Positions 21-52,734 of a stretch of 64,000 nt of DNA are shown here, in pieces. The DNA comes from an uncultured Bacilli bacterium (GTDB lineage: Bacteria; Bacillota_I; Bacilli_A; RF39; UBA660), in the NCBI GenBank assembly GCA_947629205.1, contig CANRCV010000001.1:19531-83530 (forward strand), written 5' to 3'. Made by a program: the position numbers and the translations under genes. The notes below the pieces were generated by a model that worked only from the letters and a program-made list of their open reading frames with translations, was not told where the DNA came from and ran no database searches. Position 1 is the stretch's first letter, and the number at the start of each line of letters is the position of its first letter.

Positions 21-1574
21 TTACAATGTTGGAGAAACTCCTACTCCAATTGGCAGTCCTACTATATACCACACAATTAAAATTGTCAATAAAAGAGCAA
101 ATGTCATAAATACAAATGGAATTTGATATTTAATCGCTTTTAAGAAATTTACCGGTTGTTCTTTTTGATTATATTTTTCGAGTAAAGCTAAATAAATAAC
201 AAAATAAGCAAATAAAGGGGTTAAACCAATTGTTGTACATTCTCCAAAACGAAAGACAAGTTGGGTAAATTCCGGAGAAATTCCTGCATTCATAAACACT
301 GGAACCGTCATTCCTGATAGAATAGACCATCTAGAAAGAGAAGAAGGTAAAAAGACGGTTGAAATAGCACTAACTAAGAATAATAGTAAAATAAGGGGCA
401 TGGCTGTAAAGGTCGTATTATTTAATAGATTTGATAAACCTGTTACTACAACAACACCAATATTAGTTTCTTTTACGACATTTACTAAAATAGAAGCAAA
501 GAAAATTAAAACCAATATTCTACCAATTCCATCTAAAGAATGTCCTAAATCATTACAAAATTCATGATGATTTTTAATTGTTTTGGCCCCTATACCATAA
601 AAAAGTCCAATAATAATCATACCAATTGTTACAATAAAGACAAATCCACTACTAAAGAAAGAATTATAACTAAATAATTTATCAATATAGAAAGCTTGAC
701 TATTATCTAAAAATTTCCCAGAAAAAGGTAAACCAGGAATAATATTATAAAGGAAAATAAGAAAGTAAATCATAAAAGCAATAAAAGCAAGAGCAAGTCC
801 TTTCTTTTGTTTTTTATCAAGTAATAACTCTTCTTCAAATTCTGTTTCTAAAGCTTCATATTTATCTACTTTATAAACCGTATATCTTTCTGTAATTCTA
901 GTAATTAAGAAAGCAAGCATACAAACAACAACAAACATAATAAATAGAAAACTTAATGTAGAAATCGTATAGTTACTATCCAATACATGAGCAGCTAAAG
1001 TTGTCCAATCGGTTAGGGATGAATCAATACTTGTAAAAACTATATTAATTCCATACCCACACGTTAAAGCTGCATAAGATGCAACAATTCCAATCACTGG
1101 ATTTCGTTTTCCCACCTCAAATAATATAGCACTAATCGGTAATAAAATAATAAAGGAAATATCACCAATCATACCAAGTAAAATACCAATAAGTACTAAT
1201 ATAAAAGTAACATTTACTTTTTTAGCATTTTTAGTAAGTAAAGTAAAAGCAACACGTAAAAATCCACTTTTTTGCATAATTCCTATACCTATTAAGATAA
1301 TAATAAAACTACTTAAAGGAGCAAAGGACATAAAGTTTGAAACAGTAGATGTAAAAATATATTTTAAACCAGCCAAACTCAATAAAGATTTTACCTCTTG
1401 AATATCAATATTATATTCTAAAGAACTCGTACTAATACTTCTAGAGGTAGCTTGTACACCTAAAGCATGTAATATCCCACTTAATACAATCGTAAATCCT
1501 ATCATCATTAATAAAGTCATAATAGGATGCAAAGTTATTTTTTCTTTTAATTTATTTACATTCATTCGTCTCAC
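21..1574 (-). CDS. AbgT-family transporter, polytopic membrane protein (517 aa)
   Basis: ORF track. Many hydrophobic segments. The C-terminus ...WYIVGLPIGVGVSPTL closely matches the conserved AbgT C-terminal motif (...WYLVGLPIGPG...). Confidence 0.75.
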   Translation of the reverse strand: MRRMNVNKLKEKITLHPIMTLLMMIGFTIVLSGILHALGVQATSRSISTSSLEYNIDIQEVKSLLSLAGLKYIFTSTVSNFMSFAPLSSFIIILIGIGIMQKSGFLRVAFTLLTKNAKKVNVTFILVLIGILLGMIGDISFIILLPISAILFEVGKRNPVIGIVASYAALTCGYGINIVFTSIDSSLTDWTTLAAHVLDSNYTISTLSFLFIMFVVVCMLAFLITRITERYTVYKVDKYEALETEFEEELLLDKKQKKGLALAFIAFMIYFLIFLYNIIPGLPFSGKFLDNSQAFYIDKLFSYNSFFSSGFVFIVTIGMIIIGLFYGIGAKTIKNHHEFCNDLGHSLDGIGRILVLIFFASILVNVVKETNIGVVVVTGLSNLLNNTTFTAMPLILLLFLVSAISTVFLPSSLSRWSILSGMTVPVFMNAGISPEFTQLVFRFGECTTIGLTPLFAYFVIYLALLEKYNQKEQPVNFLKAIKYQIPFVFMTFALLLTILIVWYIVGLPIGVGVSPTL

Positions 1575-1752
1575 CTAAAACTTTTTTTAATTTTTTTTCA
1601 AATTCTAATCGATCCATCATAATCTCTCTTCCACAATGGACACATTTTATTTTAATATCAACTCCCATTCTTGTCACTTGCCATTCATTCGTTCCACAAG
1701 CATGGTTTTTTTTCATTATAACATAATCATTTAACTTATATTTTTTGTTCAT
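1552..1752 (-). CDS. DUF951/YyzM-like small zinc-ribbon protein (66 aa; CxxC...CxxC)
   Basis: Two Cys pairs (HACGT...CVHCG). Small proteins of this type commonly sit next to parAB in Firmicutes. It overlaps the abgT start by 23 nt, which suggests an operon. Confidence 0.45.
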   Translation of the reverse strand: MNKKYKLNDYVIMKKNHACGTNEWQVTRMGVDIKIKCVHCGREIMMDRLEFEKKLKKVLGETNECK

Positions 1753-2551
1753 TATGCACCTCTATTTGTTTGTATGGTATCTTTATTTTATCTTTATCAT
1801 ATAAATTTTTAATAATTTTTAAAGCATCTCTTTTTATTTGCCATTGTTTTTCTTGTGTACATAAAAAACTAATGGAATAAAATATACAACTATCTTCTAA
1901 AGAAGAAATCCCTAAATATACAGGATCTTTTTTAATTCCCGGTATTTTTTTTATTTCTACTAATATTTTTTCAATTGTTTTTTCAACTTTACTAGTTTTT
2001 TCTTCATAAGCCGTTGGAATATCAATAATCACATTAGCATGTTCTTGACTAATATTCACAATTTGATCCACATTACGATTGGAAATGACTAAAACCTCTC
2101 CCGTAATTTTTTTAATTTTTGTTGTTTTTAAACCAAGTGCAATAACCTCTCCCGTAAAATCTTTAAAAGAAACAATATCTCCAACAACATAAAAATTATC
2201 CATAATAATCGTAATACCACTAATAAAATCTTTTATCGTATCTTGCAAAGCTAAACCAAGTACAGCTCCTGCTACTCCTAAACTTGCTAGTAAAGCTTTT
2301 GTATCTACACCATATAAACTTAATATAGCAAGTCCTAAAAAGATATAAATAACATATTTTAAGATATTCGTAATTAAATTGACGATTGTTCTTCTCTTTT
2401 TTCTTTCATAAGCACTCTTACCACTTTCAATAATTTTTTGAATGGCAATTCGTCCAAAATAATATGAAGCAACAGCTACAAAGATGAGTAATGCAGAAGC
2501 CCATATTTCTTTCTTAGCTAATAGTTCGAACACCCCTTTTACCTTTTCCAT
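1736..2551 (-). CDS. MscS-family small-conductance mechanosensitive channel
   Basis: Three N-terminal TM helices followed by a beta-domain with the MscS-like motif ...GDIVSFKDFTGEVIALGLKTTKIKKITGEVLVISN... Confidence 0.7.
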   Translation of the reverse strand: MEKVKGVFELLAKKEIWASALLIFVAVASYYFGRIAIQKIIESGKSAYERKKRRTIVNLITNILKYVIYIFLGLAILSLYGVDTKALLASLGVAGAVLGLALQDTIKDFISGITIIMDNFYVVGDIVSFKDFTGEVIALGLKTTKIKKITGEVLVISNRNVDQIVNISQEHANVIIDIPTAYEEKTSKVEKTIEKILVEIKKIPGIKKDPVYLGISSLEDSCIFYSISFLCTQEKQWQIKRDALKIIKNLYDKDKIKIPYKQIEVHNEQKI

Positions 2552-3442
2552 CTAATCACCTGTAATTTCTATTCCTAAAATTTCCAGTATTCTTTCTAAA
2601 TCCTTTTCTCTTTCAAAAGGAATTTCTATTTTATTCTCTTTAATTTTTACTTTAGAACCTATTTTTTCACGCATTACTTTTTCATAAATAGCATAGTGAA
2701 TATTTTTTTCACTTTCTTTTCTTTCAATTTTATTCGTTTTAGCAATATCTTTTTCTTGTAACATTCTTTCTAATTCACGAACACTTAAATTTTCTTGTAA
2801 TACTTTATCTGCTAAATCTTCTATTAAAGATACATCACTTAATTTACTTAAAGCACGAGCATGTCCCATACTTAATTTTCCTGTTTTTACAAGTTCTTTT
2901 GTTGTATTTGGTAATTTTAATAAACCTAGCATATTGGTAACATAACTTCTACTTTTACCAAAACGATGAGCAAATTCTTCTTGTGTCATATGGTTCAGTT
3001 CAATAATATTTTGATAAGCAATTGCTTCATCTATTGGATTTAAATCTTCTCTTTGAATATTTTCAATTAAAGCGATTTCCATCATTTCTTGATCATTAAA
3101 CTCTTTAATAATAGCAGGAATAGTTTCAAGTCCAGCCATCAACGCTGCTTTTGTTCTTCGCTCTCCAGCAATTAATTCATATCCTTTAATTGCTTTTTTA
3201 ACAATAATTGGTTGAACAATTCCATATTCTTTAATACTACTTGCTAATTCTTTAATACTTTCTTCATTAAATGTTTTTCTTGGTTGATAAGGATTGCTTC
3301 TTATTTCCTTTAAAGGAATTTCCACAATATCATTTAATTTGGCAGAATCAACAATCTTTTTTTCAAAATGATTAAAATCAATAATTTCATTGGAAAATAA
3401 TTGCTCTAAACCCTTTCCTAATGCTTTTCTTTTAGTTTCCAT
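2552..3442 (-). CDS. parB: ParB/Spo0J chromosome partitioning protein
   Basis: ParB N-terminal box (...PYQPRK...IVQPIIV...ELIAGERR) followed by an HTH. It overlaps parA by 11 nt. Confidence 0.9.
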   Translation of the reverse strand: METKRKALGKGLEQLFSNEIIDFNHFEKKIVDSAKLNDIVEIPLKEIRSNPYQPRKTFNEESIKELASSIKEYGIVQPIIVKKAIKGYELIAGERRTKAALMAGLETIPAIIKEFNDQEMMEIALIENIQREDLNPIDEAIAYQNIIELNHMTQEEFAHRFGKSRSYVTNMLGLLKLPNTTKELVKTGKLSMGHARALSKLSDVSLIEDLADKVLQENLSVRELERMLQEKDIAKTNKIERKESEKNIHYAIYEKVMREKIGSKVKIKENKIEIPFEREKDLERILEILGIEITGD

Positions 3443-4217
3443 CGCGACTAATCACTTCCTTTGCTAAATTGGCATATGCAAGAGTTGCACGACTTGTGGG
3501 ATCATATACATTTACGGGTTTTCCATGACTAGGAGCTTCCACTAATCGTACAAGTCTTGGAATAATGGTATTAAAAACCTTATTTTTAAAATACTTGCGA
3601 ACCTCTTCCATTACTTGAAGTCCAATATTCGTTCTTCCATCTAACATCGTCAGTAAAACACCTTCAATTCTTAAATCAGGATTCATTTGTGATTGAACTA
3701 AAATAATGGAATTTAAAAGTTGATTAATTCCTTCTAATGCATAATATTCACATTGTACAGGAATAATCACTGAATCACTAGCAACTAAAGCATTCATTGT
3801 AGAAAGACCTAAAGAAGGTTGGCAATCAATTAATATATAATCATAACTATCTTTAATATCTTGAAGACGCATATTTAGTTGATTGTTTTGTTGAAATGTT
3901 TGATCTTCAAACATTTTTTTAATAAATTCAACCTCTACTCCCGCTAAATTTAAAGTAGCAGGAATAACAGATAAATTTTTAAACTTTGTTTTAATGATGG
4001 CATCTTTTATAGAACAAGCTCCAGTAATTACATCATAAATATCATTTTTAAAATCACTCGTATTTAAACCAAGTCCATTAGAAGCATTACCTTGTGAATC
4101 CAAATCAATAAGAAGCGTCTTTTTATTTTCATTTCCTAAAGCAGCAGCCAAGTTAATACTTGTCGTTGTTTTTCCAACACCACCTTTTTGATTTACGATT
4201 GAAATAACTTTTGCCAT
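3432..4217 (-). CDS. parA: ParA/Soj ATPase
   Basis: Deviant Walker A motif KGGVGKTT near the N-terminus. Length and position upstream of parB fit. Confidence 0.9.
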   Translation of the reverse strand: MAKVISIVNQKGGVGKTTTSINLAAALGNENKKTLLIDLDSQGNASNGLGLNTSDFKNDIYDVITGACSIKDAIIKTKFKNLSVIPATLNLAGVEVEFIKKMFEDQTFQQNNQLNMRLQDIKDSYDYILIDCQPSLGLSTMNALVASDSVIIPVQCEYYALEGINQLLNSIILVQSQMNPDLRIEGVLLTMLDGRTNIGLQVMEEVRKYFKNKVFNTIIPRLVRLVEAPSHGKPVNVYDPTSRATLAYANLAKEVISRDGN

Positions 4218-4270
4218 ACTACCATCCTCTTCAATAATTAGTTACTAGAACTATTTTAACACATTAATCT

Positions 4271-4747
4271 TTATTTGTCTTTAATGATTTTAAGAATATT
4301 TTTGATTTCCTCACTTGAAAATATTTTTAATAATTTTAATACCGTTTCCACCTCTTGTAATGTTGTACAATATAATAAAGATGCCATAAGATAAAGTTTT
4401 GGACTAACTTTGATATGACGATAACAATACGGAATATAAAATTCATAATAACAAGGTATTAATATTTCAAAAAAAGAATCTACTTCACGATAACTAAAGT
4501 TAATATAAAATTTTTTATTTTCTACAAATAATTTTTTTGTATCTTCTAAATGAATTTTTAATATTAATTCGGTATTAATAAAAAAATGAAATTCAATTAT
4601 AGAGCTTGATTTATTTAAATCCATTTTATTTATTGGTATATTATTATCTAATCCAAAAAAATTTAATAACACTTTATCAAATTTATAACGATACTTTTTA
4701 TCTTCAAATATTTTCTTAAACTTTTCTTTTGTAATTAACCTTTGCAA
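4271..4747 (-). CDS. hypothetical protein (158 aa), first gene of the parAB-containing transcription unit
   Basis: ORF track. Apparent TTG start preceded by a strong RBS (AAGGAGG, 7 nt spacing). No family recognised. Confidence 0.4.
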   Translation of the reverse strand: MQRLITKEKFKKIFEDKKYRYKFDKVLLNFFGLDNNIPINKMDLNKSSSIIEFHFFINTELILKIHLEDTKKLFVENKKFYINFSYREVDSFFEILIPCYYEFYIPYCYRHIKVSPKLYLMASLLYCTTLQEVETVLKLLKIFSSEEIKNILKIIKDK

Positions 4748-4941
4748 ACAAAAACCTCCTTAAAATTATGCCTTGCTAGTTCATAAAATCATATAAAAAA
4801 TGCAAAGTCAAATTACAAATTTGCCAAATTTGCTAAGCAGATTTTCTATTTTTTCATACAAAAAAGCCAAATCTGTAGACAAATTTGGCAAATCTGTATC
4901 ACTTTTTAGAAAATTTGTATTTTTTAAAAATTTTAATATTT

Positions 4942-6882
4942 TTAATTATTTATTGGTGTAAGAACGATACGGAAACTACGCTTTGATAGTCCACTATCAC
5001 CTTCATTAGAAAAAGCAAATATATTAGCTTGGATACCACTATTACTTTCGCCACCTCTCATAAACCATGGTAATTCGTTACCAATAAAACGAGCCCAACT
5101 TTCATTCCATGAATTAATTAGGTTATTACTTGTACTATATTTTTTCAACCCAAATGGTCCTAATTCTCCTGTGGCATCTCCTAATATTCTTTTATTATAA
5201 GTTGTGTAAACTGAACTATACTCATAAGCATCATAATATTTTTCATTCTCCTCCACTAAATCACTACTCCATATATTGCCATTCATATATCCCGTCACTA
5301 ATTCAAATGCACCCCCTGACATATCATATATTCCGCTATAATTTCCAGTTGTACTTGCAACGTTGCTTTTTTTGTTTTTGTAATTATAGCTTTTACCATT
5401 ATCTTGATTTGGTGTTACTATGTCATAACCATTATATTCAGTATATCCACTTGTTGGCATTTCTATTGCAGCATATCCTGTTACAAAATTTTGACTATTA
5501 TTTATCATTATTTCTGTACATATACCATCTGTACATATTCCATACTTAGAATGCGATAGATAAGCTACTGCTCCCCACTCTGTATTTTTCATCATATGGC
5601 TATCTAATTCTCTTTGATAAGCATAACTAACATCAAACATATTTTTTACTGTTATGCCTCTCCAACTATAAACATTTGGCTTTATAATAACTTTTGATGA
5701 ATTACTTTCATCTTTTTGAGCTTCTGTTGTACTGTTAGCATCTTTATATCCAGTTTCAAACTTTCCTACCCACATTCCTTTTGAACCTTCAAATGCTGTG
5801 AAGGCTGGATGTGTCATCCATTTATCCACTGCACATGAACCATCCTCTCCACTTGCATTTGGTGTTTCACAACTTGTTTCTGTATTTTCTGTATCATCTA
5901 AATCAAATTTAATTTCTATTGTTTGAGCTGCATTCTCATTTAATGGTCCATTTGCATCTGTATATTCTCCCATATTAAAGATTTTATATTTATATTTTGG
6001 TATCCATACAAAATAACTTTCGATGTTATCTTCTGGTATTGTATCTCCTTCTTTGTATTCTTTTGTATTGTCTACTAATATAACAGCATTTGCCCATTCC
6101 TTTTCTTCATAGTTATACCATTCTTCTTTTGTATTGGCTTTGGTTACTTTTCCTGTATCATCTATGATGACTGGTATTAGTTTATCATTGGTAGTTGGTT
6201 CTTCTGCTATTTCATTTGCAGTTAACATAGCTACTGGTTTACTACTTGTTTCTAATACTGGATCTGCTCCATGTAAGATTGGTTCTGTATATTCTGCTAC
6301 GGTATTCATTTTTCCATCTACTACTATTTTACTTATAAAATTTTTATTCATAGCATCATCATTGACGGTGACATCTTCATCCATCCATAGTTTTAATTTA
6401 AATTCTCTACTTTCTTGTCCTTTTAATGTTCCATTCATTAAATCTTTTGCTTCTATTGATGTATAATCATCTCCACTATAGGTGGTTACATCACTTGGAT
6501 ACTCACTTAATATTTGTTTTTGGCCACCATTTAGTTCTACTGCTACATACTTACTATCTAATATATTTTTTTCATTTTCACTACTTTCTTTTAATTTTTC
6601 TAGTTTTAATGAAAAATTAAGAGTTGTATTACATTTATTTTTTATTGTAAAACTATATGGTGTTAATTTTTGTGCTTCTTCATCTGTTATTGGGTATGCT
6701 TTTTCTAAATGAATAGCATCACTTTCATTTTCAAGAATCAAACTTAAACAATCACTTTGAATTTGATTCATACCTTGTTGTTCTGCAGTAGATGTCCACC
6801 ATGCAAAACTGGAACCTATCATTACAATTATTGTAAAGAGCATTCCTATTACTAAATATTTTTTCTTTTTACTTTTTTCCAT
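4942..6882 (-). CDS. exported two-domain protein, paralog 1: SipW/TasA-like N-terminal region plus C-terminal FGE-sulfatase (SUMF1)-like domain
   Basis: N-terminal signal/TM followed by ...SSFAWWTSTAEQ. C-terminal motifs EWGAVAYLSHSKYG, GIYDMSGGAFELVTGY, FMRGGES and SFRIVLTP parallel the FGE motifs SWxDAVAYCNW, GLYDMSGNVWEW, RGGSW and GFRC. RBS GGAGA upstream of the ATG at 6882. Confidence 0.6.
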   Translation of the reverse strand: MEKSKKKKYLVIGMLFTIIVMIGSSFAWWTSTAEQQGMNQIQSDCLSLILENESDAIHLEKAYPITDEEAQKLTPYSFTIKNKCNTTLNFSLKLEKLKESSENEKNILDSKYVAVELNGGQKQILSEYPSDVTTYSGDDYTSIEAKDLMNGTLKGQESREFKLKLWMDEDVTVNDDAMNKNFISKIVVDGKMNTVAEYTEPILHGADPVLETSSKPVAMLTANEIAEEPTTNDKLIPVIIDDTGKVTKANTKEEWYNYEEKEWANAVILVDNTKEYKEGDTIPEDNIESYFVWIPKYKYKIFNMGEYTDANGPLNENAAQTIEIKFDLDDTENTETSCETPNASGEDGSCAVDKWMTHPAFTAFEGSKGMWVGKFETGYKDANSTTEAQKDESNSSKVIIKPNVYSWRGITVKNMFDVSYAYQRELDSHMMKNTEWGAVAYLSHSKYGICTDGICTEIMINNSQNFVTGYAAIEMPTSGYTEYNGYDIVTPNQDNGKSYNYKNKKSNVASTTGNYSGIYDMSGGAFELVTGYMNGNIWSSDLVEENEKYYDAYEYSSVYTTYNKRILGDATGELGPFGLKKYSTSNNLINSWNESWARFIGNELPWFMRGGESNSGIQANIFAFSNEGDSGLSKRSFRIVLTPINN

Positions 6883-7001
6883 ATCATCAATTCTCCTATA
6901 TACAACTTATGATTGTATATAATATATATTTTACAACTTGAGGTTGTTATAGTCAATACAATTTCAAGTTGTATGATAATTTTCATTTAAGAGGTGTAAT
7001 T

Positions 7002-7223
7002 ATGAATATAGAAAGATTAAAAGAAATTCGTGAAGATAAAGATTTATATCAAAAAGACATAGCAAAAGTTTTGAATGTTTCTCAACAACAATATAATAAA
7101 TATGAATTAGGAATTAATTCCATTCCTATAGAAAAATTATATAAACTAGCAGATTTATATGAAACAAGTATTGATTATTTAGTTGGTAGAACCAATGAAA
7201 GAAAACCTTATCCTAAAAAATAA
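7002..7223 (+). CDS. XRE-family helix-turn-helix transcriptional regulator (about 73 aa), divergent from paralog 1
   Basis: Classic XRE HTH (...QKDIAKVLNVSQQQYNKYELG...). Start moved to ATG 7002, which has RBS AAGAGGTG. C-terminal tail GRTNERKPYPKK. Confidence 0.8.
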   Translation: MNIERLKEIREDKDLYQKDIAKVLNVSQQQYNKYELGINSIPIEKLYKLADLYETSIDYLVGRTNERKPYPKK

Positions 7224-7236
7224 GGTTTTAAATTTT
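7196..7236 (+). terminator. rho-independent terminator overlapping the 3' end of XRE-1 (10-bp perfect stem AAAACCTTAT/ATAAGGTTTT, then a T-run)
   Basis: Read directly from the sequence. Confidence 0.55.
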
Positions 7237-7293
7237 TTATGTTTATAAATATATTACACTAATTCTCTAAAATAGTATTAAAGTATTATTGTA

Positions 7294-9174
7294 TTATGGT
7301 GCAAGAACAATACGGAAGCCCATATTACTCTCTTCTCCACCACCTTCACCACAAAAAGCAAAGATTCCCGCTTCTACACCATTATGTTTGATTGAACCAC
7401 GATCCAGCCATGGTCCATTTTTAAACATAAACCAAGCATTATCAAAATGCCAAGAAGAAACATTTCTATCAGCATTACCATTGTAATGCACAAATGGTCC
7501 TAGTTCACCCGTTGCATCTCCTAGTATTCTATTTTTAAATACCAAATTATTTGTAGCATAATTATATACATCGTAATATTTTGAATTTTCTTCTTGATTA
7601 TTAAACGGAAAAGTACTAGTACTAAATCCACTTGAACCAAAGGTAAATCCAGTATTATTTGTTCCTTTTATTACTCCCATTGTATATTCCTTTGATCCAC
7701 CACTCATATCATATATTCCACTATAATTTCCTGTTGTACTTGCAACTTGACTTTTTGAATTTTTGTAATTTATCGTTTTTGTTCCATCAGCACCTAATCC
7801 ACTTGGGGTTTCATAGTCCCTATAGGCACTTAATCCAGTCATAGGTTCTTCTGTTGCCGCATAACCTGTAACAAATGCACTATTATTATTGATTCTTACT
7901 TCTACACATTTATCCCCATCACATGTTCCATACTTTGAATGGGATAAATAAGCTACTGCTCCCCATTCAGTATTCTTCATCATATGACTATCTAAGTCTA
8001 TTTGATAGTTATAACTTGTATCAAACATATTTTTTACTGTTATGTTTCTCCAACTATATACATTGGGTTTGATAATAACTTTTTCTGCTGCCAATTCATT
8101 GTGTTGCATAGCTTCTGTTGCACTTGTTACTCCATCATATCCAGTTTCAAATTTACCTACCCAAAATCCGTTTGTACCAAATGCAGTAAATGCTGATGGT
8201 GTCATCCACTTATCTACTGCACATGAGCCATTCTCTCCACTTGCTGGTGTTGTACATTCTATTGTGTTATCTACTGTATCATAGATTCCAAATTCTATTT
8301 CTATTTCTTGTGACTTTTCTTGATACTCATCTTGAGAAAGTCCATTATATTCTCCCATATTAAAGATTTTGTATTTATATTTTGGTATCCATACAAAATA
8401 ACTTTCTATATTTTCTTCTTTTATAGTTCCATCTTCTTCTATAGTACCATTATCTTTTAAGATAACCGCATTTGCCCATTCTTTTTTAGAATAATCATAC
8501 CATTTTTCTTCTATATTTGCTTTAGTTACTGTTCCATCTGTTTCATTTATTTTTACTGGTATTAAATTATCTTTTAGTACTGGATCTGCTCCATTTAATG
8601 TATCCTCTGTATATACTTTTGCTAGTGTATTTAATGTAGCATTCACTACGACTTTACTTTCAAATGTTTTATTCATGGACTCTTCATCTTCTACTGTTAC
8701 ATGTTCATCCATCCATAGTTTTAAACTATATTGTTTTGATTCTTTTCCATTTAGTATTCCTGTTGCTAGTTCATATCCTTTTTTATATTTTTCTAATGTT
8801 GTTTCTTTTAAACTATTTAATATTCTTTTGGTATTACTATTTAATTGTACTGCTATATATTCTTCTTTTAATGTACTACTATCACTTATACCTAAGTTTA
8901 CTGTATAGTTAATACTTGTATCACATGTATTTTCTACTTTAAAAGTAAATGGTGTTAAATCTTGTGCTTCTTCATCTGTTATTGGGTAGGCTTTTTCTAA
9001 ATGAATAGCATCTTTTTCTTCATTCAGTGATACTTTTAAACATGTACTTGTAATTTGATTAATTCCACTTTGTTCTGCAGTGGATGTCCACCATGCAAAA
9101 CTGGAACCTATAATAAGTGTTAATAAAAGTAATCCCCCAACAACACTGTAAATTACTCTTTCTTTTTTCTTCAT
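7294..9174 (-). CDS. exported TasA-like/FGE-like two-domain protein, paralog 2 (626 aa from ATG 9174)
   Basis: Start trimmed to MKKKERVIYSVVGGLLLL... (signal peptide). It has the same AWWTSTAEQSGINQI motif and the same C-terminal FGE-like motifs (GIYDMSGG, EWGAVAYLSHSKYG, FRIVLAP). Confidence 0.6.
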   Translation of the reverse strand: MKKKERVIYSVVGGLLLLTLIIGSSFAWWTSTAEQSGINQITSTCLKVSLNEEKDAIHLEKAYPITDEEAQDLTPFTFKVENTCDTSINYTVNLGISDSSTLKEEYIAVQLNSNTKRILNSLKETTLEKYKKGYELATGILNGKESKQYSLKLWMDEHVTVEDEESMNKTFESKVVVNATLNTLAKVYTEDTLNGADPVLKDNLIPVKINETDGTVTKANIEEKWYDYSKKEWANAVILKDNGTIEEDGTIKEENIESYFVWIPKYKYKIFNMGEYNGLSQDEYQEKSQEIEIEFGIYDTVDNTIECTTPASGENGSCAVDKWMTPSAFTAFGTNGFWVGKFETGYDGVTSATEAMQHNELAAEKVIIKPNVYSWRNITVKNMFDTSYNYQIDLDSHMMKNTEWGAVAYLSHSKYGTCDGDKCVEVRINNNSAFVTGYAATEEPMTGLSAYRDYETPSGLGADGTKTINYKNSKSQVASTTGNYSGIYDMSGGSKEYTMGVIKGTNNTGFTFGSSGFSTSTFPFNNQEENSKYYDVYNYATNNLVFKNRILGDATGELGPFVHYNGNADRNVSSWHFDNAWFMFKNGPWLDRGSIKHNGVEAGIFAFCGEGGGEESNMGFRIVLAP

Positions 9175-9303
9175 AAAATTCTCACTTTCTTTGCATGTAA
9201 TATGCGTAATACGTATATTACTTTTTAAATTTATTATATACGTAAAACGTATATAAGTCAATGCGTGAGACGTATATAATGTAAAATAAATTCAGTGATT
9301 AAT

Positions 9304-9525
9304 ATGAATATTGAAAGATTAAAAGAAATTAGAGAAGATAGAGATTTAAAGCAAATAGATATAGCAAAATTCCTTAAAGTTACACAAGCTCAATATTGTC
9401 GTTATGAAATGGGAGTTAATATAATTCCATTAGAAAAAATAGATAAACTTGCTGAATTTTATAATACTAGTGTTGATTATTTAATTGGTAGAACCAATGA
9501 AAGAAAACCTTATCCTAAAAAATAG
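9304..9525 (+). CDS. XRE-family HTH regulator 2 (about 73 aa), divergent from paralog 2
   Basis: MNIERLKEIRED...DIAKFLKVTQAQYCRYEMG... Same GRTNERKPYPKK tail. The last ~38 nt of its coding sequence are identical to the matching segment of XRE-1. Confidence 0.8.
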   Translation: MNIERLKEIREDRDLKQIDIAKFLKVTQAQYCRYEMGVNIIPLEKIDKLAEFYNTSVDYLIGRTNERKPYPKK

Positions 9526-9556
9526 ACATTAAAAAAATCTAGTTTCCTAGATTTCA

Positions 9557-9820
9557 TTATTCTTCTTCAATTTTATTAAATTCATCTAAAATTGCAGTTT
9601 GGAACATTGAACGAATATCAGTATTAATTGGATGAGCAATGTCTTTGTATTCTCCAGTTGCTGTTTTTCTACTTGGCATTGCTATAAATAATCCATTATC
9701 TCCTTCAATAATACGGATATCATGGATGGCAAATGCATCGTCGATAACAACGGTTGCTATTCCTTTCATTCTGTTTCCTTCTCTTTCAATTTTACGAACT
9801 GTTACTGATGTAATTTTCAT
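9557..9820 (-). CDS. spoVG: SpoVG septation protein
   Basis: ...[35 protein letters not shown]... is near-identical in pattern to B. subtilis SpoVG. Confidence 0.9.
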
Positions 9821-9899
9821 GCTTACTCTCCTTCTAAAGTTTCATATTCTCGTAACTTACTATTATTGTATGATAAATTTTTAAAGGAATCAAGAGTTT

Positions 9900-10112
9900 T
9901 TACAAATACTTTATATTTATTTCACCTGTAGCTATATCAGAGTAAGTAAAACTTTTTTCTACTCCATTTTCATTTATTGTAAAAATACTTGGATAGACAT
10001 TTGAAATATAGCCATAGACTTTGTAATTTTTATTACGCATTCCAAAAACACTAACCTCTACTTGAGCATTTAAGTGTTTCTTTACTTCTTCACGAATAAT
10101 ATCTAAATTCAT
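9900..10112 (-). CDS. veg: Veg (DUF1021) biofilm/sporulation-associated small protein
   Basis: Motif ...YPSIFTI...SFTYSDIATGEINI is Veg-like. Its position between yabG and spoVG matches Bacillus. Confidence 0.75.
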   Translation of the reverse strand: MNLDIIREEVKKHLNAQVEVSVFGMRNKNYKVYGYISNVYPSIFTINENGVEKSFTYSDIATGEINIKYL

Positions 10113-10123
10113 AATAACCCCCT

Positions 10124-10906
10124 TTATCTTGGATATCCTACATACATAAGACCATTACAAATAATGCCTCCCATACCATCTTTTCCATATTTGGTTTGTT
10201 CTAATAAAGAAAGTAAATCAATTTCTTTATTTCTTTCTGTTAAAGCTATTGCAGTTGCAATAATAGCTGGATCTAAACAATGAATATTAATCCGTTTAGG
10301 ACTTGAAGCAAAATTGGCGCCAGCTTTAATTAATTCTTCATAATTACTTTGACAAGCTCCAGCAATAATGACTAATTTTTCATGACTTTTTTCATATTTA
10401 CGACACTCTTTTACGGCTTTAATAAAATTCTCAGTATTTTTATAATTGTGTATATCTTCTATTTTTCCTTTTTTCTTATAATAGGCATCATGTCCAGTAA
10501 TAATAACAATATCTGGTTTACATTCTTCTAATAAGTCTCTTATTTTTAAAGGAATTTCTATCTCATTTAACTTTTTACCAATAGCAAAAACACTATGTTT
10601 TTTATAATACTCTAAACATCTTTGCAAATATTCTTTATCCCCATCAATATGAAGAATTTTACCTGGTAAATAAAAATATTCACTACGATCAAATACATCA
10701 TCGTTTTTTTCTTCTGGAAAATCCATTTTTAAATTTTGTCGATCTTCTTCTGTGGTTTTTTTTAAATCTTCTATCTCACTATCTGCATATAAACGAACAT
10801 CAATTCCTTTTAAATAACATATATTACCTTTCATATTTATGACTTTAAACAAGGTATCATTATTATAACTATTTCTGGTTACAATATCCCCTTTTTTTAT
10901 TGGCAT
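10124..10906 (-). CDS. yabG: sporulation-specific protease YabG (peptidase U57)
   Basis: Long collinear similarity to B. subtilis YabG: ...DIVIITGHDAY...IIAGACQSNYEELIKAGANFASSPKRINIHCLDP... Confidence 0.8.
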   Translation of the reverse strand: MPIKKGDIVTRNSYNNDTLFKVINMKGNICYLKGIDVRLYADSEIEDLKKTTEEDRQNLKMDFPEEKNDDVFDRSEYFYLPGKILHIDGDKEYLQRCLEYYKKHSVFAIGKKLNEIEIPLKIRDLLEECKPDIVIITGHDAYYKKKGKIEDIHNYKNTENFIKAVKECRKYEKSHEKLVIIAGACQSNYEELIKAGANFASSPKRINIHCLDPAIIATAIALTERNKEIDLLSLLEQTKYGKDGMGGIICNGLMYVGYPR

Positions 10907-10959
10907 TTTAGTTCACCAATATATTATATGCACCTAAAATGGTTTTTGCCCATAAAAAT

Positions 10960-11742
10960 TTATTTTTCTAATTTTGTTGCTAAATAAATAAAATCTTTTG
11001 GTTTTATTTCTTCTGCTCTTATTGTTTCTTTATAACCAAGTTCATTTAAAATAGCATAGACTTTATTCCAATCATACTCTTTTAAATTATTTTTAAGAGT
11101 TTTTCTTTTATTTTGAAAAGCTTTACGAATCAATTGTTTATAAAATTCTTGGTTATGAATAGCACTATTTAATTTATGGGTTAATTTAATAACTGCACTA
11201 TCAACTTTAGGTACAGGAATAAAGTTTTTTTTATCTACATCAAATAAAATTTGTGCCTCATAATTCATAGCAATAAGTAAGGTTAGAGCATTGTATTCTT
11301 TATGATTTTCTTTAGCACAAATTCGATTGGCTACCTCTTTTTGTACAAGTAAAACAATTTCATCAATACTATTTAAATCAATTAATTTTAAGATAATAGG
11401 AGAGGTAATGTAATAAGGAATATTCGCTACCACTTTTATTTTTTGATAAGAAAAAATAGCACTATCTTTTTTTAAATCATGATTTAAAAAATCATCATAA
11501 ATGATTTTACACTTTTCACTTTGATAAACATTTAAATAATCTTCCATCCTTTTATCTATTTCATAGCATAGTAAATAACTATTTTTATTTTTTAAATGTT
11601 TTGTTAAAGCTCCCATACCTGGACCAATTTCAATAATTAAATCATTTTCTTGTACAGCAACACTATCTGCTATATTTTTTAAAATAGTTTCATTTTTTAA
11701 AAAGTTTTGACCAAATTTTTTCTTTGCTTGTATTCTTTCCAT
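10960..11742 (-). CDS. rsmA: 16S rRNA (adenine1518/1519-N6)-dimethyltransferase RsmA/KsgA
   Basis: KKKFGQNFL...IEIGPGMGALT motifs. Start set at ATG 11742 (RBS GGTG), which avoids overlap with the upstream gene. Confidence 0.85.
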   Translation of the reverse strand: MERIQAKKKFGQNFLKNETILKNIADSVAVQENDLIIEIGPGMGALTKHLKNKNSYLLCYEIDKRMEDYLNVYQSEKCKIIYDDFLNHDLKKDSAIFSYQKIKVVANIPYYITSPIILKLIDLNSIDEIVLLVQKEVANRICAKENHKEYNALTLLIAMNYEAQILFDVDKKNFIPVPKVDSAVIKLTHKLNSAIHNQEFYKQLIRKAFQNKRKTLKNNLKEYDWNKVYAILNELGYKETIRAEEIKPKDFIYLATKLEK

Positions 11743-14846: not shown

Positions 14847-16367
14847 CTATTTTTCTACATCAATTCTTTGAAATAAGATTTCTGGAGTATTTAAATCATA
14901 AATAGAATTTTCATGAAATGCAAATGTTTTATCTTCCGTATTTAATTGATTTAAAATACGTTCACTCGTTTGTGGTAAATAGGGAAATAAGAATACAGCA
15001 CATATACGAATTGATTCTACTAAATTATATAAAACGGTCTCTAAACGATTTTTCTTTTCCTCTTCTTTGGCAAGAAGCCAAGGAGTTGTTTCATCAATGT
15101 ATTTGTTGCATCTTCTTAAAACTTCAAAGATTTCATCAATAGCTGCACCTATTTCTAAATGATCCATCTTTTCTTCTACTTTTGCTTCTAAAGCTTGAAC
15201 TTTTGTAATAAGTTCTTGATCAATTTCTTCCTTTACTTTTTTATTTTCAATATGTCCTTCAAAATATTTTTGACCCATTGAAATAGTACGATTGACTAAG
15301 TTTCCTAAAATATTTACTAAATCGCCATTAATTCTTTCAATTAATAAATCTCTTGTAAATACACCATCATTAGAAAAAGGTATTTCGTGTAACATATAGT
15401 AACGAACAGCATCGACACCAAATTCGTTTACTAAATCATCGGCATAGATAACATTACCACGACTTTTGCTCATCTTTCCATCACTCATAATAAGCCAAGG
15501 ATGGCCAAAGACTTGTTTTGGTAGTGGTAAATCTAAACTCATTAGAAAGCAAGGCCAATAAAGAGTATGGAAACGAATAATATCTTTTCCAATTAAGTGT
15601 AAATCAGCTGGCCAAAGTCTATTAAACTCTTCACTACTTCCATCTGGGTCATACCCAATATTGGTAATATAGTTTGTTAGGGCATCCAACCAAACATACA
15701 CAATGTGTTTTGGATCAAAATCAACAGGAATTCCCCAATCAAAAGAAGTTCTAGAAACACATAAATCTTGTAAGCCTGGTTTTAAGAAATTATTGACCAT
15801 TTCATTCTTTCTAGATTCTGGTTCAATAAAGTGAGGATGACTTTCAATATACTCTATTAATTTATCTTGATATTTGCTTAATTTAAAAAAGTAAGCTTCC
15901 TCTTTTTTTAATTCAACATCTCTACCACAATCCGGGCATTTTCCATCTACAAGTTGAGATTCTGTCCAAAAAGATTCACAAGGTGTACAATAAAGCCCTT
16001 GATATTCACCTAGATAAATGTCTCCTTTATCATACATTTTTTTAAATATTTTTTGAACAATTTTTTCGTGTTGCTCATCGGTTGTTCTTACAAATTTATC
16101 ATAACTTGTATTCATAATATCCCAAATATTTTTAATAACACCTGATACATTATCCACAAATTCTTTTGGTGTTAGTCCTGCTTCTTTGGCTTTTAACTCA
16201 ATTTTTTCTCCATGTTCATCTGTACCTGTTTGAAAATATACATCATATCCTTTTAAACGTTTATAACGAGCAATGGCATCGGCAAGAACAATTTCATATG
16301 TATTTCCAATATGAGGTTTTCCAGATGTATAAGCAATAGCTGTTGAAATATAGTATTTTTCTTTCAT
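14847..16367 (-). CDS. metG: methionyl-tRNA synthetase (short form, 506 aa)
   Basis: HIGN (HIGH-type) and KMSKS motifs. CxxC...CxxC zinc knuckle. Confidence 0.9.
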   Translation of the reverse strand: MKEKYYISTAIAYTSGKPHIGNTYEIVLADAIARYKRLKGYDVYFQTGTDEHGEKIELKAKEAGLTPKEFVDNVSGVIKNIWDIMNTSYDKFVRTTDEQHEKIVQKIFKKMYDKGDIYLGEYQGLYCTPCESFWTESQLVDGKCPDCGRDVELKKEEAYFFKLSKYQDKLIEYIESHPHFIEPESRKNEMVNNFLKPGLQDLCVSRTSFDWGIPVDFDPKHIVYVWLDALTNYITNIGYDPDGSSEEFNRLWPADLHLIGKDIIRFHTLYWPCFLMSLDLPLPKQVFGHPWLIMSDGKMSKSRGNVIYADDLVNEFGVDAVRYYMLHEIPFSNDGVFTRDLLIERINGDLVNILGNLVNRTISMGQKYFEGHIENKKVKEEIDQELITKVQALEAKVEEKMDHLEIGAAIDEIFEVLRRCNKYIDETTPWLLAKEEEKKNRLETVLYNLVESIRICAVFLFPYLPQTSERILNQLNTEDKTFAFHENSIYDLNTPEILFQRIDVEK

Positions 16368-16379: not shown

Positions 16380-16612
16380 TAAAAAAATAAAAAATCATAA
16401 ACTAAGGGCGAAATAACCGCGGTACCACCTTAATTCATGATTTTATCATGCACTTTTCTTCGTAACGTGAAGCATTCGATTTAACTCCAGAACCATGTTC
16501 ATATCTTCGTTTGTATTTACTTTCACCAAACGTAAACTCTCTTATCACAAACAAAAAATATTACTCTTTCTTTCTTCATTAATTACTTGTAGTTTAGCAC
16601 AAAACTTATTTA
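16380..16612 (-). promoter_or_regulatory. T-box riboswitch leader of metG
   Basis: The minus strand reads AATTAAGGTGGTACCGCGG (T-box consensus AAUUAGGGUGGUACCGCG) at 16417-16436. A terminator hairpin (AATCATGAATTAAGG...CCTTAGTTTATGATT followed by a U-run) encloses it, which is the usual terminator/antiterminator arrangement. Confidence 0.7.
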
Positions 16613-26585: not shown

Positions 26586-26672
26586 TTAAAAAAGTGCACA
26601 CGAATAGAGATTGATGTGGCTGCTATTTTCCAATCCTGACCAGATTACAATATATTCGTTGCACAAATAGAT
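26586..26672 (-). ncRNA. ffs: small (4.5S-type) SRP RNA
   Basis: The minus strand reads ...GUGCAACGAAUAUAUUGUAAUCUGGUCAGGAUUGGAAAAUAGCAGCCACAUCAAUCUCUAUUCGUGUGCAC followed by UUUUUU. It has the conserved domain IV elements GGUCAGG...GGAA...AGCAGCC and a closing helix GUGCA/UGCAC plus CGAAUA/UAUUCG. The location next to tadA/dnaX matches Bacillus scr. Confidence 0.65.
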
Positions 26673-34250: not shown

Positions 34251-35621
34251 TTAAAATTTATTTTTGATTTCATTAATCTCTTGTTCCAATTTTTTATTCT
34301 CTTTTATATCTTTTAAAATTTTTTCATAAGCATGCATTACGGTTGTATGATCTTTTCCTCCAAATTCAAATCCAATTCTAGGATAGGTTTCTTCTGTCAT
34401 AATTCTTGCTAAATACATAGCAATTTGTCTTGGATAAGTAAAAGAAGCATTTCTTTTATGTCCTTTTAAATCTTCAACAGTAATATGATAAAACTCTGCT
34501 ACTGCTTTTTGAATATTTTCTATAGAAATAGAAGAATATATATTCACATTTAAATAATCTTTTAATGCTTCATTGGCAAATTCTAAATCAATTTTTTCTG
34601 GTACCATCATTGCTGTATAAGCCATTAATCTTAATATAGTTCCTTCTATAAAACGTACATCATTTTGACAATGATTAGCAATTAAATCTATAACCGTATC
34701 ATCTACCATATTTTCAATACTTTTTCCTTTTAATTTTTCTTTAATAATACGACAACGAAGATCATAATCTGGTGGATCTATATTTACAGGAAGTCCCCAC
34801 ATCAAACGACTTCTAAGTCTTTCTTCTAATTTTTTTAAATCATCAGGACTTTTATCACTACTAATAATAATTTGTTTATTAGCTTGATGTAAGGCATTAA
34901 ATGTATAAAAAAATTCTTCTTGTGTTTTTTCTGCTCCTACTAAATATTGAATATCATCAATAATTAAGACATCCACATTACGATATTTGTTTTTAAATTG
35001 AGTAGAATAATCAATTGCACTTTTACCTTTTTCCATACCAGCTACATTAATATATTCATTCATAAACATATCACTTGTTGTATAAAGTACTTTTTTATCC
35101 GTATTTTCTTCAATAAAATTACCAATTGCATGCATTAAATGGGTTTTACCAATACCACTTTTTCCATAAATAAATAATGGATTATATATTTTTCCTGGTG
35201 CTTCTGCTACAGCCATACCAGCAACTTTTGCAAATTGATTGGTTTTCCCAACTATAAAATTATCAAAATTTAAATCTTTTCTTAAATTACTTTCCCAAAG
35301 AATTTCTACTTGCTCTTTTTCTTCTTTATTTTCTTCTTCTACTTGTTTTGCTTCCATTTTTTCTTGCTTTGGTAATTCACTTTCTAAAACAAAATGAATA
35401 TCATAATTAATACCAGATAAATTAAATAAGGTTTCTTCAATTAAAGAATAATAATTTTCTCCTAACATCTTTTTATGAAGATCCATGGGAACTTGAATGG
35501 TCATTTTATCTTGTTCCACATTCACTAATTTTAATTTATCAAACCAAAGATTATAAGAAGAAGCTTGAATTTCTTTTTTAATGTTACTTAAAAAATTGGT
35601 CCATAACTCATCGACTACCAA
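34251..35621 (-). CDS. dnaA: chromosomal replication initiator DnaA
   Basis: AAA+ Walker A GKSGIGKTHL. C-terminal DnaA-box-binding domain ...YPRIGFEFGGKDHTTVMHA... Confidence 0.95.
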   Translation of the reverse strand: MVVDELWTNFLSNIKKEIQASSYNLWFDKLKLVNVEQDKMTIQVPMDLHKKMLGENYYSLIEETLFNLSGINYDIHFVLESELPKQEKMEAKQVEEENKEEKEQVEILWESNLRKDLNFDNFIVGKTNQFAKVAGMAVAEAPGKIYNPLFIYGKSGIGKTHLMHAIGNFIEENTDKKVLYTTSDMFMNEYINVAGMEKGKSAIDYSTQFKNKYRNVDVLIIDDIQYLVGAEKTQEEFFYTFNALHQANKQIIISSDKSPDDLKKLEERLRSRLMWGLPVNIDPPDYDLRCRIIKEKLKGKSIENMVDDTVIDLIANHCQNDVRFIEGTILRLMAYTAMMVPEKIDLEFANEALKDYLNVNIYSSISIENIQKAVAEFYHITVEDLKGHKRNASFTYPRQIAMYLARIMTEETYPRIGFEFGGKDHTTVMHAYEKILKDIKENKKLEQEINEIKNKF

Positions 35622-40805: not shown

Positions 40806-42671
40806 ATGAAATATGAAGTTATAGTAGTTGGAGGAGGACACGCAGGTTGTGAAGCTGCTCATATGGCTGCTTTTTTAGGTAAAAAGACATTACTGATCAC
40901 AATGAATAAAAAAAATATTGCTGATATGCCTTGTAATCCATCTATTGGAGGAACTGCTAAAGGAGTTATTGTTCGTGATATAGATGCTCTAGGTGGCCTT
41001 ATGGGTAAAGTTGCAGATGAATCCCATTTTCAAATGAAAATGTTAAATAGTAAAAAAGGACCTGCGGTGCAATCTCTTCGTTGCCAAGCTGATAAAACAA
41101 CTTATCCTAAAAATATGTTAAAACGATTAGAAAATACTGAAAATTTAACCATTCAAGAAGATTTAGTAGAAGACTTAATTGTTGAAAACAATAAAATAAA
41201 AGGAATAGTGCTAGCAAATAATGAAAAAATAGAATGCGATGCCTTAATATTAACAACAGGAACGTATTTAAAAAGTAATATTTTAAGAGGTGCTGTTTCA
41301 ACAGAAGGTGGTCCACACGGAGAAGGAAGAAGCAATCATTTAAGTGATAATTTAAAACGTTTAGGTTTTACGATTCAACGTTTAAAAACCGGAACTCCTC
41401 CTAGAATTAAAGCAGATTCTATTGACTTTTCAAAATGTAGTATTGAAAAAGGGGATAATAAATATTACACCTTTTCTCACGATGATAAACCAAAATACAA
41501 AATAGAAGACCAACAAAACTGTTATTTAATTTATACGAATCAAGAAACACATCAAATTATTTTAGACAATCTAGATAAATCCAGTATGTATGGAGGGTAT
41601 GTAACAGGAGTTGGACCAAGATATTGTCCATCCATTGAAGATAAAATTGTACGTTTTAAAGATAAAGAAAGACATCAATTATTTTTAGAACCGGAAAGTA
41701 TGTATTATGATGAATGGTATATTCAAGGTTTTTCTACAAGTATGCCCGAAGATGTTCAAGAAAAAATGGTACATAGTTTAAAAGGACTCGAAAATGCGAT
41801 AATTACCAAATATGCTTATGCCATAGAATATGATGCGATAGACCCTTTACAACTAAAACCATCCTTAGAAACAAAAGTAATTGAAAACTTATTTACAGCA
41901 GGGCAAATTAACGGAACAAGTGGTTATGAAGAAGCAGCAGGACAAGGTCTAATCGCCGGAATAAACGCCGCAAGAAAATTAGAGAATAAGAGTCCATTTA
42001 TTTTAAAAAGAAATGAATCCTATATAGGTGTTTTAATTGATGATTTAGTAACGAAAGGAACAAAAGAACCTTATCGAATGCTTACATCTCGTGCTGAATA
42101 TCGTTTACTTCTTCGCCACGATAACGCAGATTTACGTTTAAGAGGTTATGCTCACGAACTAGGAACTATCACCGATGAAATGTATCAAAACTACTTAAAT
42201 CGCGTACAAAAAATAGAAGAATTAAATGACTTTTTAGATACCACAAAACTAGAACTAACCGAAGATGTAAAAGCAAAATTTCAAGAACAAAACTTTAATT
42301 TACCTTTAAATAAAATGAGTTTAAAAGAACTATTAAAAAGACCAGAAATTACATTTGAATTTTTAGATACACTTTTAAATATCCCATTTGAAGAAGATAT
42401 CAAAGAAGTCGTAAGTATTGCGATTAAATATGATGGGTACATTAAAAAAACCGAAAAAGAAATAGAAAAAATGTTAAAGTTAGAAGAAAAACAAATTCCA
42501 AAAGATATTGATTATAGCAAAGTAAATAACTTAGCAAGTGAAGCTCGTGTGAAATTAGAAAAAATAAGACCAATTTCCATTGGCCAAGCTGCAAGAATTA
42601 GTGGTGTTAATCCTGCCGATATTTCAATACTTGCTATTTACTTAAAGAAAGAGTATGGTAAAAATGACTAA
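40806..42671 (+). CDS. mnmG: tRNA uridine 5-carboxymethylaminomethyl modification enzyme MnmG (GidA)
   Basis: FAD-binding motif VIVVGGGHAGCEAA. 621 aa. Confidence 0.95.
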   Translation: MKYEVIVVGGGHAGCEAAHMAAFLGKKTLLITMNKKNIADMPCNPSIGGTAKGVIVRDIDALGGLMGKVADESHFQMKMLNSKKGPAVQSLRCQADKTTYPKNMLKRLENTENLTIQEDLVEDLIVENNKIKGIVLANNEKIECDALILTTGTYLKSNILRGAVSTEGGPHGEGRSNHLSDNLKRLGFTIQRLKTGTPPRIKADSIDFSKCSIEKGDNKYYTFSHDDKPKYKIEDQQNCYLIYTNQETHQIILDNLDKSSMYGGYVTGVGPRYCPSIEDKIVRFKDKERHQLFLEPESMYYDEWYIQGFSTSMPEDVQEKMVHSLKGLENAIITKYAYAIEYDAIDPLQLKPSLETKVIENLFTAGQINGTSGYEEAAGQGLIAGINAARKLENKSPFILKRNESYIGVLIDDLVTKGTKEPYRMLTSRAEYRLLLRHDNADLRLRGYAHELGTITDEMYQNYLNRVQKIEELNDFLDTTKLELTEDVKAKFQEQNFNLPLNKMSLKELLKRPEITFEFLDTLLNIPFEEDIKEVVSIAIKYDGYIKKTEKEIEKMLKLEEKQIPKDIDYSKVNNLASEARVKLEKIRPISIGQAARISGVNPADISILAIYLKKEYGKND

Positions 42672-52723: not shown

Positions 52724-52734
52724 GAGGATAAGAA

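Follow-up and report, generated by a model that had tools for sequence, protein, structure and literature searches.

Diverged paralogs with a predicted C-type-lectin head and small divergent regulators near the replication origin of an uncultured RF39 bacterium

What are two large genes of no named family, each facing a small putative repressor gene, doing between parA and spoVG in an uncultured bacterium? The locus occupies positions 4942-9525 of a 64,000-nucleotide stretch (hereafter the window: positions 19,531 to 83,530 of the forward strand of contig CANRCV010000001.1, assembly GCA_947629205.1) from an uncultured Bacilli bacterium of the RF39 lineage (UBA660). Two paralogs for exported-type proteins, L1 (646 amino acids [aa]; 4942-6882, minus strand) and L2 (626 aa from its ATG; 7294-9174, minus strand), are each divergent from a 73-aa gene of the XRE family, X1 (7002-7223, plus strand) and X2 (9304-9525, plus strand), across intergenic regions of 119 bp (L1-X1) and 129 bp (L2-X2). 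A longer reading frame of L2, started by a TTG, extends to 9261. An earlier note, made from the letters of this DNA, had located these four genes correctly, as all are in the list of open reading frames (ORFs) at those positions, and a tblastn scan of the window found a third paralog, L3 (626 aa; 45388-47268, plus strand).

The reading that we consider fairly probable is that L1, L2, and L3 are old, static paralogs encoding adhesin or fiber proteins of lectin fold, each individually repressed by its own small regulator. The evidence for each part is set out below.

Predicted fold of the large proteins and extent of the family

None of the three proteins has a significant family match in Pfam, NCBIfam, PHROG, or PADLOC, and no solved structure was matched by a single large-protein sequence. 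An AlphaFold2 model of L1 built on 53 homologs had a predicted local distance difference test score (pLDDT) of 84.7 and a predicted template modeling score of 0.72. It comprises a helix (aa 3-25; nucleotides [nt] 6808-6876) within a basic and hydrophobic N-terminal leader (aa 1-25), a low-confidence segment (aa 23-42), a probably TasA-like β-sandwich (aa 46-192; nt 6307-6747), a linker, and a large module of the C-type-lectin (CLec)/formylglycine-generating enzyme (FGE) fold (aa 236-646; nt 4945-6177), the last with pLDDT above 90. By alignment, L2 shares this architecture. In a Foldseek comparison with the PDB, the top match of the model was TaqVP (5vf4; E 1.8e-8), the variable protein of a diversity-generating retroelement (DGR), while the N domain was closest to the TasA-like archaeal bundling pilin 7ueg (E 1.3e-3). 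At the sequence level, the family profile gave only subsignificant matches to PDB entries, TaqVP and PvdO, on NxEW and G-x-x-D-x-x-G-x-x-W-E motifs. The label "TasA-like/FGE-like" that the earlier note gave to these proteins thus agrees with the predicted fold, more tentatively in its TasA-like part, with "TaqVP-type C-type-lectin head" the more precise wording. Like DGR variable proteins, the window copies have a predicted C-type-lectin fold with the equivalent of a variable region (VR) at the C terminus.

The sequence tests for the two other families implied by that label fail. The N domain has no Pfam or NCBIfam match to TasA/camelysin (Peptidase_M73), and the large module has none in Pfam to the FGE-sulfatase family (PF03781), lacks its catalytic residues, and carries no catalytic cysteine pair in the VR-equivalent C-terminal stretch. 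An enzymatic role of L1-L3 within the FGE-sulfatase superfamily, either formylglycine generating or sulfoxide-synthase-like, with the XREs controlling a metabolic function, is highly improbable; compared with known members of that superfamily (FGE, pFGE, EgtB, PvdO, and PorK/GldJ), the window proteins have large insertions and an exported-protein context. L1-L3 would be better regarded as nonenzymatic ligand-binding surface proteins, i.e., adhesins.

How such proteins might be held at the surface is suggested by their N termini. In L1-type members, the β-sandwich is preceded by a basic, hydrophobic leader that terminates in G-[STV]-[ST]-[YF]-A-x-[WF] (G-S-S-[FY]-A-W-W in the window paralogs), and this leader resembles the signal peptides of the SipW/TasA class. 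In TasA, subunits are joined through a donor strand made up of the residues that directly follow the signal peptide (PMC9674648). The model of L1 gives a hint that its low-confidence segment, aa 23-42, might act as a donor strand of that kind. Anchoring could be by an uncleaved leader or by TasA-style donor-strand polymerization.

The family to which L1-L3 belong is large. More than 5,257 matches were found in a 90%-clustered database, labeled by their sources only as "hypothetical protein" apart from one JGI "FliL," and devoid of Pfam domains except for PF16403, a surface Ig-like domain added on a few of the longer members. At 50% identity there were 11,343 representatives at E ≤ 1e-3, of which 7,488 were at ≤ 1e-10. 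Family members were located at a minimum of 586 genome loci, of which 80 were kept. These 80 all come from metagenome-assembled genomes (MAGs), nearly all labeled uncultured Bacilli or Tenericutes, and stem from gut samples of rabbit, mouse, chicken, and human (Hadza). Genomes carry many copies, with tandem arrays of up to four in the kept loci, and all-against-all clustering of the ORFs of the 80 loci found no recurrent neighbor genes other than family members themselves.

What the members have in common is the C-terminal head (profile positions ~185-627), while their N termini differ. One relative (the member at locus L070, discussed below) carries a type IV pilin leader (KGFTLIELL; PF07963, E 7e-6); a fourth paralog from our genome, P0087 (502 aa), which a protein search placed beyond the window on its 91-kb contig, is a short form without the sandwich; and other N-terminal types also occur. 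The variation of N-terminal modules on a constant head fits filament or surface display. The remark of the earlier note that it did not recognize this architecture as a described family needs qualification: in its C-terminal module the family is remotely related to the DGR variable proteins of the TaqVP type, and some homologs are real DGR targets. Neither this precise set of domains nor its pairing with a regulator was found described in the literature searched.

Divergence of the paralogs and links to diversity-generating retroelements

The identical ends of X1 and X2 had been taken by the earlier note to indicate a recent duplication of the whole module, which the comparison of the large genes contradicts. 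L1 and L2 are 52% identical over a full-length alignment (E = 0), and L3, which has no XRE copy beside it, is 62-65% identical to L2 and 50-54% to L1. In codon-level alignments the amino acid identities are 57% (L1/L2), 54% (L1/L3), and 65% (L2/L3), and conserved residues with degenerate codons use the same codon only 0.70-0.75 of the time. L2 is therefore nearer to the distant L3 than to its tandem neighbor. Since L1 and L2, although adjacent, are not each other's nearest paralogs and codon identity is low, the duplications that gave rise to L1, L2, and L3 are, by these sequence comparisons, old, and the tandem neighbors are not the most recent pair.

X1 and X2 are 73% identical and share the C-terminal end GRTNERKPYPKK, encoded by 3' ends that are indeed identical, over a run of 40 nt (7183-7222 = 9485-9524; ~38 nt in the earlier note). 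All 12 tail codons are the same in both genes, for which P ≈ 0.0012 if codons were drawn independently from the codon usage of this genome. Such identity being improbable, it is likely to reflect local gene conversion or nucleotide-level constraint and not a young duplication. The 40-nt stretch contains a rare ACC Thr codon common to both genes. In X1, its last bases pair into a hairpin with the sequence directly past the stop (AAAACCTTAT...ATAAGGTTTT), and a T-run follows; the hairpin downstream of X2 differs from that of X1.

Since the best structural match of the L1 model was a DGR variable protein, we looked for pairs of a VR and a template repeat (TR) around family genes. At locus L070, the family gene ends in a 142-nt sequence that is repeated 200 bp farther downstream, and in this repeat 15 of 15 mismatches fall at template adenines; the repeat is followed by an ORF with a MutS_I domain, bAvd, and a reverse transcriptase (RT). 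A cassette of the same type at locus L021 has 12 of 12 mismatches at template adenines. The family therefore includes genuine DGR targets. Two further loci (L013 and L026) have what look like decayed VR/TR pairs, and another (L024) has an RT fragment upstream of the family gene. The small MutS domain-I-like ORF (128-133 aa) lies between the TR and bAvd in both cassettes (12006-12392 in L070 and 12480-12878 in L021); to our knowledge, such a gene is not listed among the standard DGR components. We found no papers on DGRs in RF39.

The window copies appear to be different. No TR-like copy of the 3' ends of L1, L2, or L3 was found in the 64-kb window, their tails matching only one another in conserved internal stretches, and tblastn with the L070 proteins found no homolog of the RT, bAvd, or the MutS_I-like protein there. 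Judged from these 64 kb of the genome, L1-L3 appear to be static paralogs. Could they still be hypervariable, diversified from a distance by a DGR that the genome encodes elsewhere? The L070 and L021 members are bona fide targets whose VR occupies the corresponding place at the C terminus, the visible 64 kb are but a part of the genome, and the tails of L1-L3 are slightly richer in GC than the rest of each gene (0.34-0.39 versus 0.30-0.31). Genuine VRs of the relatives, however, have a GC content of 0.48, and the last ~140 nt of L1, L2, and L3 are not near-identical and therefore cannot share one TR. Together with the lack of TR, bAvd, and RT in the window, this makes remote diversification improbable. 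The head is diversified by a DGR in some genomes; in the window, under the reading of static paralogs, variety would come from diverged paralogs.

Small divergent regulators and operator-like arrays

X1 and X2 match the helix-turn-helix (HTH) domain HTH_3 (PF01381) with 55.1 bits (E 8e-15) and 44.6 bits (E 1.5e-11), respectively, against a cutoff of 23, and their XRE identity and head-to-head layout with the large genes were correctly recognized in the earlier note. Each of the two intergenic regions contains an operator-like array of its own. The array in the L1-X1 region, O1 (6902-6972), consists of three imperfect ACAA-N7-TTGT palindromes (6902-6916, 6933-6947, and 6958-6972), which are the only three matches to this pattern in the window and all lie within 71 bp. 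Their total is near chance (3 versus 2.59 expected in the window), the signal being the clustering. The array in the L2-X2 region, O2 (9197-9279), is made up of four ACGTATATWA half-sites, arranged as two palindromes (9197-9221 and 9234-9256) and a further half-site (9270-9279). By chance, 64 kb should contain 0.32 matches; the window contains five, of which four fall in O2, within 70 bp.

Both arrays coincide with promoter-like sites of the large genes, as identified by consensus match only. The best such site for L1 (TTGACT-17-TAAAAT, 10/12; 6928-6956, minus strand) is overlapped and flanked by O1 sites, and in the best site for L2 (TTGACT-17-TATAAT, 11/12; 9233-9261, minus strand) the spacer is taken up by the 9234-9256 palindrome, which reaches both hexamers. 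Each promoter-like site thus has a palindrome in its spacer, with additional array sites close by on either side. A promoter scan of positions 4700-9900 ranked the L2-facing site top and the L1-facing site among the best. A terminator-like hairpin with a T-run (4866-4889, minus strand) lies just 3' of the L1 stop codon, which gives L1 the appearance of a monocistronic gene.

At locus L035, an XRE 80% identical to X2 adjoins an intergenic region 83% identical to that of the window, with all repeats and both hexamers kept; the family gene beside it differs from L2 in its N-terminal module. At L006, an X1-like XRE is accompanied by ACAC...GTGT palindromes at the same positions. The predicted recognition helices are SQQQYNKYE in X1, TQAQYCRYE in X2, and TQAQYSRYE in the L035 protein, which thus combines four of the five variant recognition-helix residues of X2 with X2-type operator-like sites. 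From these patterns we infer that X1 and X2 act as local repressors, orthogonal to each other, and control their own genes as well. The dedicated local repressor proposed in the earlier note is consistent with these operator-like arrays over promoter-like sites, the support being at the level of sequence.

Other roles for the XREs have to be weighed. They might be activators, regulators of their own genes only, or orphan antitoxin-like HTH neighbors: XRE proteins of 73 aa serve many roles, X1 and X2 give generic, HTH-only matches to antitoxin and defense regulators, and most members of the large-protein family have no such neighbor. We regard this alternative as rather unlikely, given that the arrays span the best promoter-like sites of the large genes and not just the XRE starts, that array and promoter-like site are kept in L035, that divergent HTH pairing is specific to the family, and that there is no toxin-like partner ORF.

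This specificity emerges from the surroundings of the family genes at the fetched loci. A divergent HTH gene detected by hidden Markov model was found at 6 of 87 family genes, compared with none of 543 other genes of ≥200 aa at the same loci (Fisher P 6e-6). All three window copies have a divergent small regulator or a candidate for one. The regulators beside family genes belong to several unrelated types (X1/X2-like, other HTH_3, HTH_26, a two-HTH protein, and YlcI/YnfO-like), which suggests that they were recruited repeatedly and independently.

The candidate facing L3 is of the last type, a 65-aa gene (45086-45283, minus strand) of the YlcI/YnfO family (DUF3950, phrog_949) that may encode a DNA-binding regulator. 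One of its homologs is named YlcI/YnfO family by its source, and another, at locus L011, occupies the same divergent position beside a family member. In another lineage (loci L081-L086, 2641-4192), a YlcI/YnfO-like gene is divergent from a leader-bearing 412-aa protein that has no Pfam match and no BLASTP similarity to the family and is thus not a detectable member of it. This hints that the small YlcI/YnfO-like protein may pair with exported proteins more widely.

Taken together, these data suggest the following scheme. Each paralog would be its own transcription unit with a divergent small regulator, either X1, X2, or the YlcI/YnfO-like protein. X1 and X2 would each bind their own palindromic operator array, which would cover the -35/-10 region of the adjacent large gene and probably the promoter of the XRE gene as well. 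Binding would shut off the large gene and also hold the XRE gene under its own control, and each paralog could be switched on independently.

Several observations weigh against the reading of individually repressed, exported adhesins and temper our confidence in it. Promoter-like matches in this AT-rich region are as frequent as in shuffled sequence (37 versus 36.1), and the placement of promoters over the arrays, for which the evidence is the highest-scoring sites and their conservation in L035, is therefore only suggestive. The pairing is enriched at family genes, as the co-occurrence tally proposed in the earlier note reveals, and it is at the same time a minority feature: among 80 evaluable family genes of ≥400 aa at the fetched loci, a divergent small regulator directly precedes 9 (11%), another member of the family in tandem precedes 19, and unrelated genes precede most of the others. 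With ~89% of members having no adjacent small regulator, the pairing does not define the family, and the Fisher test ignores relatedness among loci. The AlphaFold2 prediction for the 45086-45283 protein is an extended N terminus plus two helices, with a pLDDT of 71; as to a possible ribbon-helix-helix fold, the top Foldseek matches, SegB and Reg576 (ribbon-helix-helix proteins), have E values above 3, which are not significant. As to export, the SipW-type signal TIGR04088 scored only 13.6 bits (E 0.055) on L2, under the cutoff of 19, and a scan for the SGSMxP motif of a SipW-type signal peptidase found none in the window or the fetched loci.

Setting around the origin, known systems, and implications

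The replication origin is inside the window, with dnaA at 34251-35621 (minus strand) and a flip of strand bias near 36 kb. Where the earlier note saw the cassette as inserted into a Bacillus-like gene order, the site is instead a synteny breakpoint. On the dnaA side, genes for the YabG peptidase, Veg, and SpoVG were identified; the ORFs past them resemble, in our own reading of the translations, rsmA and tatD, an order that matches the Bacillus subtilis map, as does the placement of rsmG and a Noc-like gene on the other side. parA (3432-4217) and parB (2552-3442) come after spoVG on the dnaA side, themselves on the "wrong" replichore. On the rnpA side of oriC lie rsmG and a long ParB/Noc-like gene (42655-45071), after which L3 follows, on the other replichore. 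Because parA/parB follow spoVG and L3 fills the slot after the noc-like gene, L1 and L2 lie at a breakpoint and not within a conserved block. L3 (plus strand) and L1/L2 (minus strand) are inverted paralogs that flank the origin exactly at the breakpoints, a layout of the kind that an origin-symmetric inversion by recombination between paralogs would create. At locus L024, a family gene lies ~4 kb upstream of parA/parB.

The spoVG, veg, and YabG-type peptidase genes (9557-10906) are named for sporulation and biofilm genes of B. subtilis; the closest relatives of this genome are often labeled "Tenericutes." At the Noc position, 43413-45071 (plus strand) encodes an unusually long, 552-aa ParB_N plus HTH_ParB protein with a C-terminal extension of ~350 aa without a Pfam match. 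Directly 3' of L3 is an AAA_14/DUF4143 ATPase gene (47318-48577, plus strand) that matches the PADLOC candidate defense family PDC-S01 (E 1.5e-144). Between L1 and parA, a 158-aa ORF (4271-4747, minus strand) lies where the AT content of the region peaks (GC ~0.19-0.21) and has no match in Pfam, NCBIfam, PHROGs, or PADLOC. Two RNAs scored above the Rfam gathering score, a T-box leader (16401-16585, minus strand) upstream of a 506-aa ORF (14847-16367) and a small signal recognition particle RNA (26588-26668, minus strand); no Rfam element was found within the cassette.

The earlier note had also remarked that no integrase or transposase is nearby. None was found near the cassette, nor was a tRNA gene, and the large proteins carry no phage-family or defense-family signal. 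As a defense system the locus was rejected, with L1, L2, and L3 having no PADLOC match and the XREs matching only generic HTH regions. Another idea is that of a decayed prophage or mobile-element remnant, in which a CI/Cro-type repressor sits beside a tail-fiber-like receptor-binding protein. X1 and X2 match phrog_8 (E 3e-22 and 2e-19, with the RstR subfamily below cutoff), the YlcI/YnfO-like gene matches phrog_949, and CLec heads are common as phage receptor-binding modules, e.g., in Mtd. XRE-paired family genes also sit at different sites in related genomes. In the MAG Lapin-018 bin67 (locus L009), a region (37-11410) is syntenic with window positions 51038-59556, with 70-96% protein identity, and an XRE plus family gene directly follow the ortholog of 58849-59556. 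Other genes stand at this place in the window, and the insertion sites of such units therefore vary among related genomes. The large proteins themselves, however, have no PHROG match and, in a motif scan, no relative among 2.9 million IMG/VR viral contigs; they begin with leaders of an export type; the cassette is not flanked by an integrase, a terminase, or any other phage gene; and its GC content is like that of the neighboring genes. We therefore hold a prophage origin to be quite improbable.

If not a phage remnant, which known system does the locus most resemble? In fold, the closest relative is TaqVP (PMC6328139). Compared with DGR variable proteins (TaqVP, 5vf4; TvpA; Mtd), the window copies lack TR, Avd, and RT in the window; compared with TaqVP, they are about twice its size, carry a TasA-like N domain and an export leader, and owe their diversity to paralogy. 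The closest precedent in design is the type V pilins of Bacteroides with a CLec head, which occur as many paralogs per genome, some DGR diversified and others static (bioRxiv 10.1101/2024.11.15.621889), and which, as here, combine an N-terminal polymerizing or anchoring domain with a C-terminal CLec ligand-binding head. Unlike those pilins, the proteins described here are from Bacilli-type MAGs, their N domains are unrelated (TasA-like or with a type IV pilin leader), and they have no lipoprotein signal. A term search of the same preprint (bioRxiv 10.1101/2024.11.15.621889) found no dedicated divergent small repressors.

In regulation, the closest analogy is the tapA-sipW-tasA operon of B. subtilis under the XRE-family SinR. 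Here, in contrast, there is no Pfam TasA/camelysin match and no sipW or tapA nearby, and TasA has no large CLec head. X1 and X2 are HTH-only proteins of 73 aa in which the HTH fills residues 6-60, therefore leaving no room for an oligomerization domain of the SinR type. Beside the XRE genes there is no further ORF of ≥50 aa that might encode a SinI-like partner, although no dedicated SinI search was made. Small XRE repressors of the Cro/CI type are alike in their HTH_3 domain, divergent gene pair, and multiple palindromic sites spanning both promoters. They differ in that the setting here is not a phage, control would be exerted on just one gene, for a surface protein, and the operators of the paralogous repressors have diverged.

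On these grounds, the window proteins should be described as working like CLec adhesins and not as members of the DGR-target, TasA, or FGE families; they are not filed with any of the three because no TR or RT was found in the window and the sequence tests for TasA and FGE fail. What is new is the occurrence of a DGR-target-type CLec head with a TasA-like module as apparently static paralogs, each behind a small putative repressor; the kinds of components were already known. More tentatively, as a possibility to which we give limited credence, the family may be a Gram-positive-lineage counterpart of the CLec-tipped pilins of Bacteroides, i.e., subunits that polymerize by donor-strand exchange as in TasA (or, for variants with pilin leaders, enter a type IV filament) and bear a TaqVP-type head that is varied either by DGR or by a library of orthogonally repressed paralogs.

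An XRE gene next to its target is, taken alone, ordinary bacterial regulation. The interest of the locus lies less in this pairing than in how large and obscure the family is and in the contrast between DGR and paralog library. The family is large, has no covering Pfam domain or functional name, and is present in many copies per small genome; its fold and VR/TR link to DGR variable proteins provide a first clue to the function of much of the surface proteome predicted for these organisms and suggest ligand-binding heads mounted on fiber or pilin modules. If the family is indeed a counterpart of the Bacteroides pilins, gut Bacilli would have two interchangeable routes to vary the same head, namely, DGR hypermutation of one copy and a library of paralogs. 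In the latter, a repressor for each paralog and diverged sets of XRE operators would allow independent control of alternative surface proteins, and the result would be switch-like, mutually independent expression of alternative adhesins.

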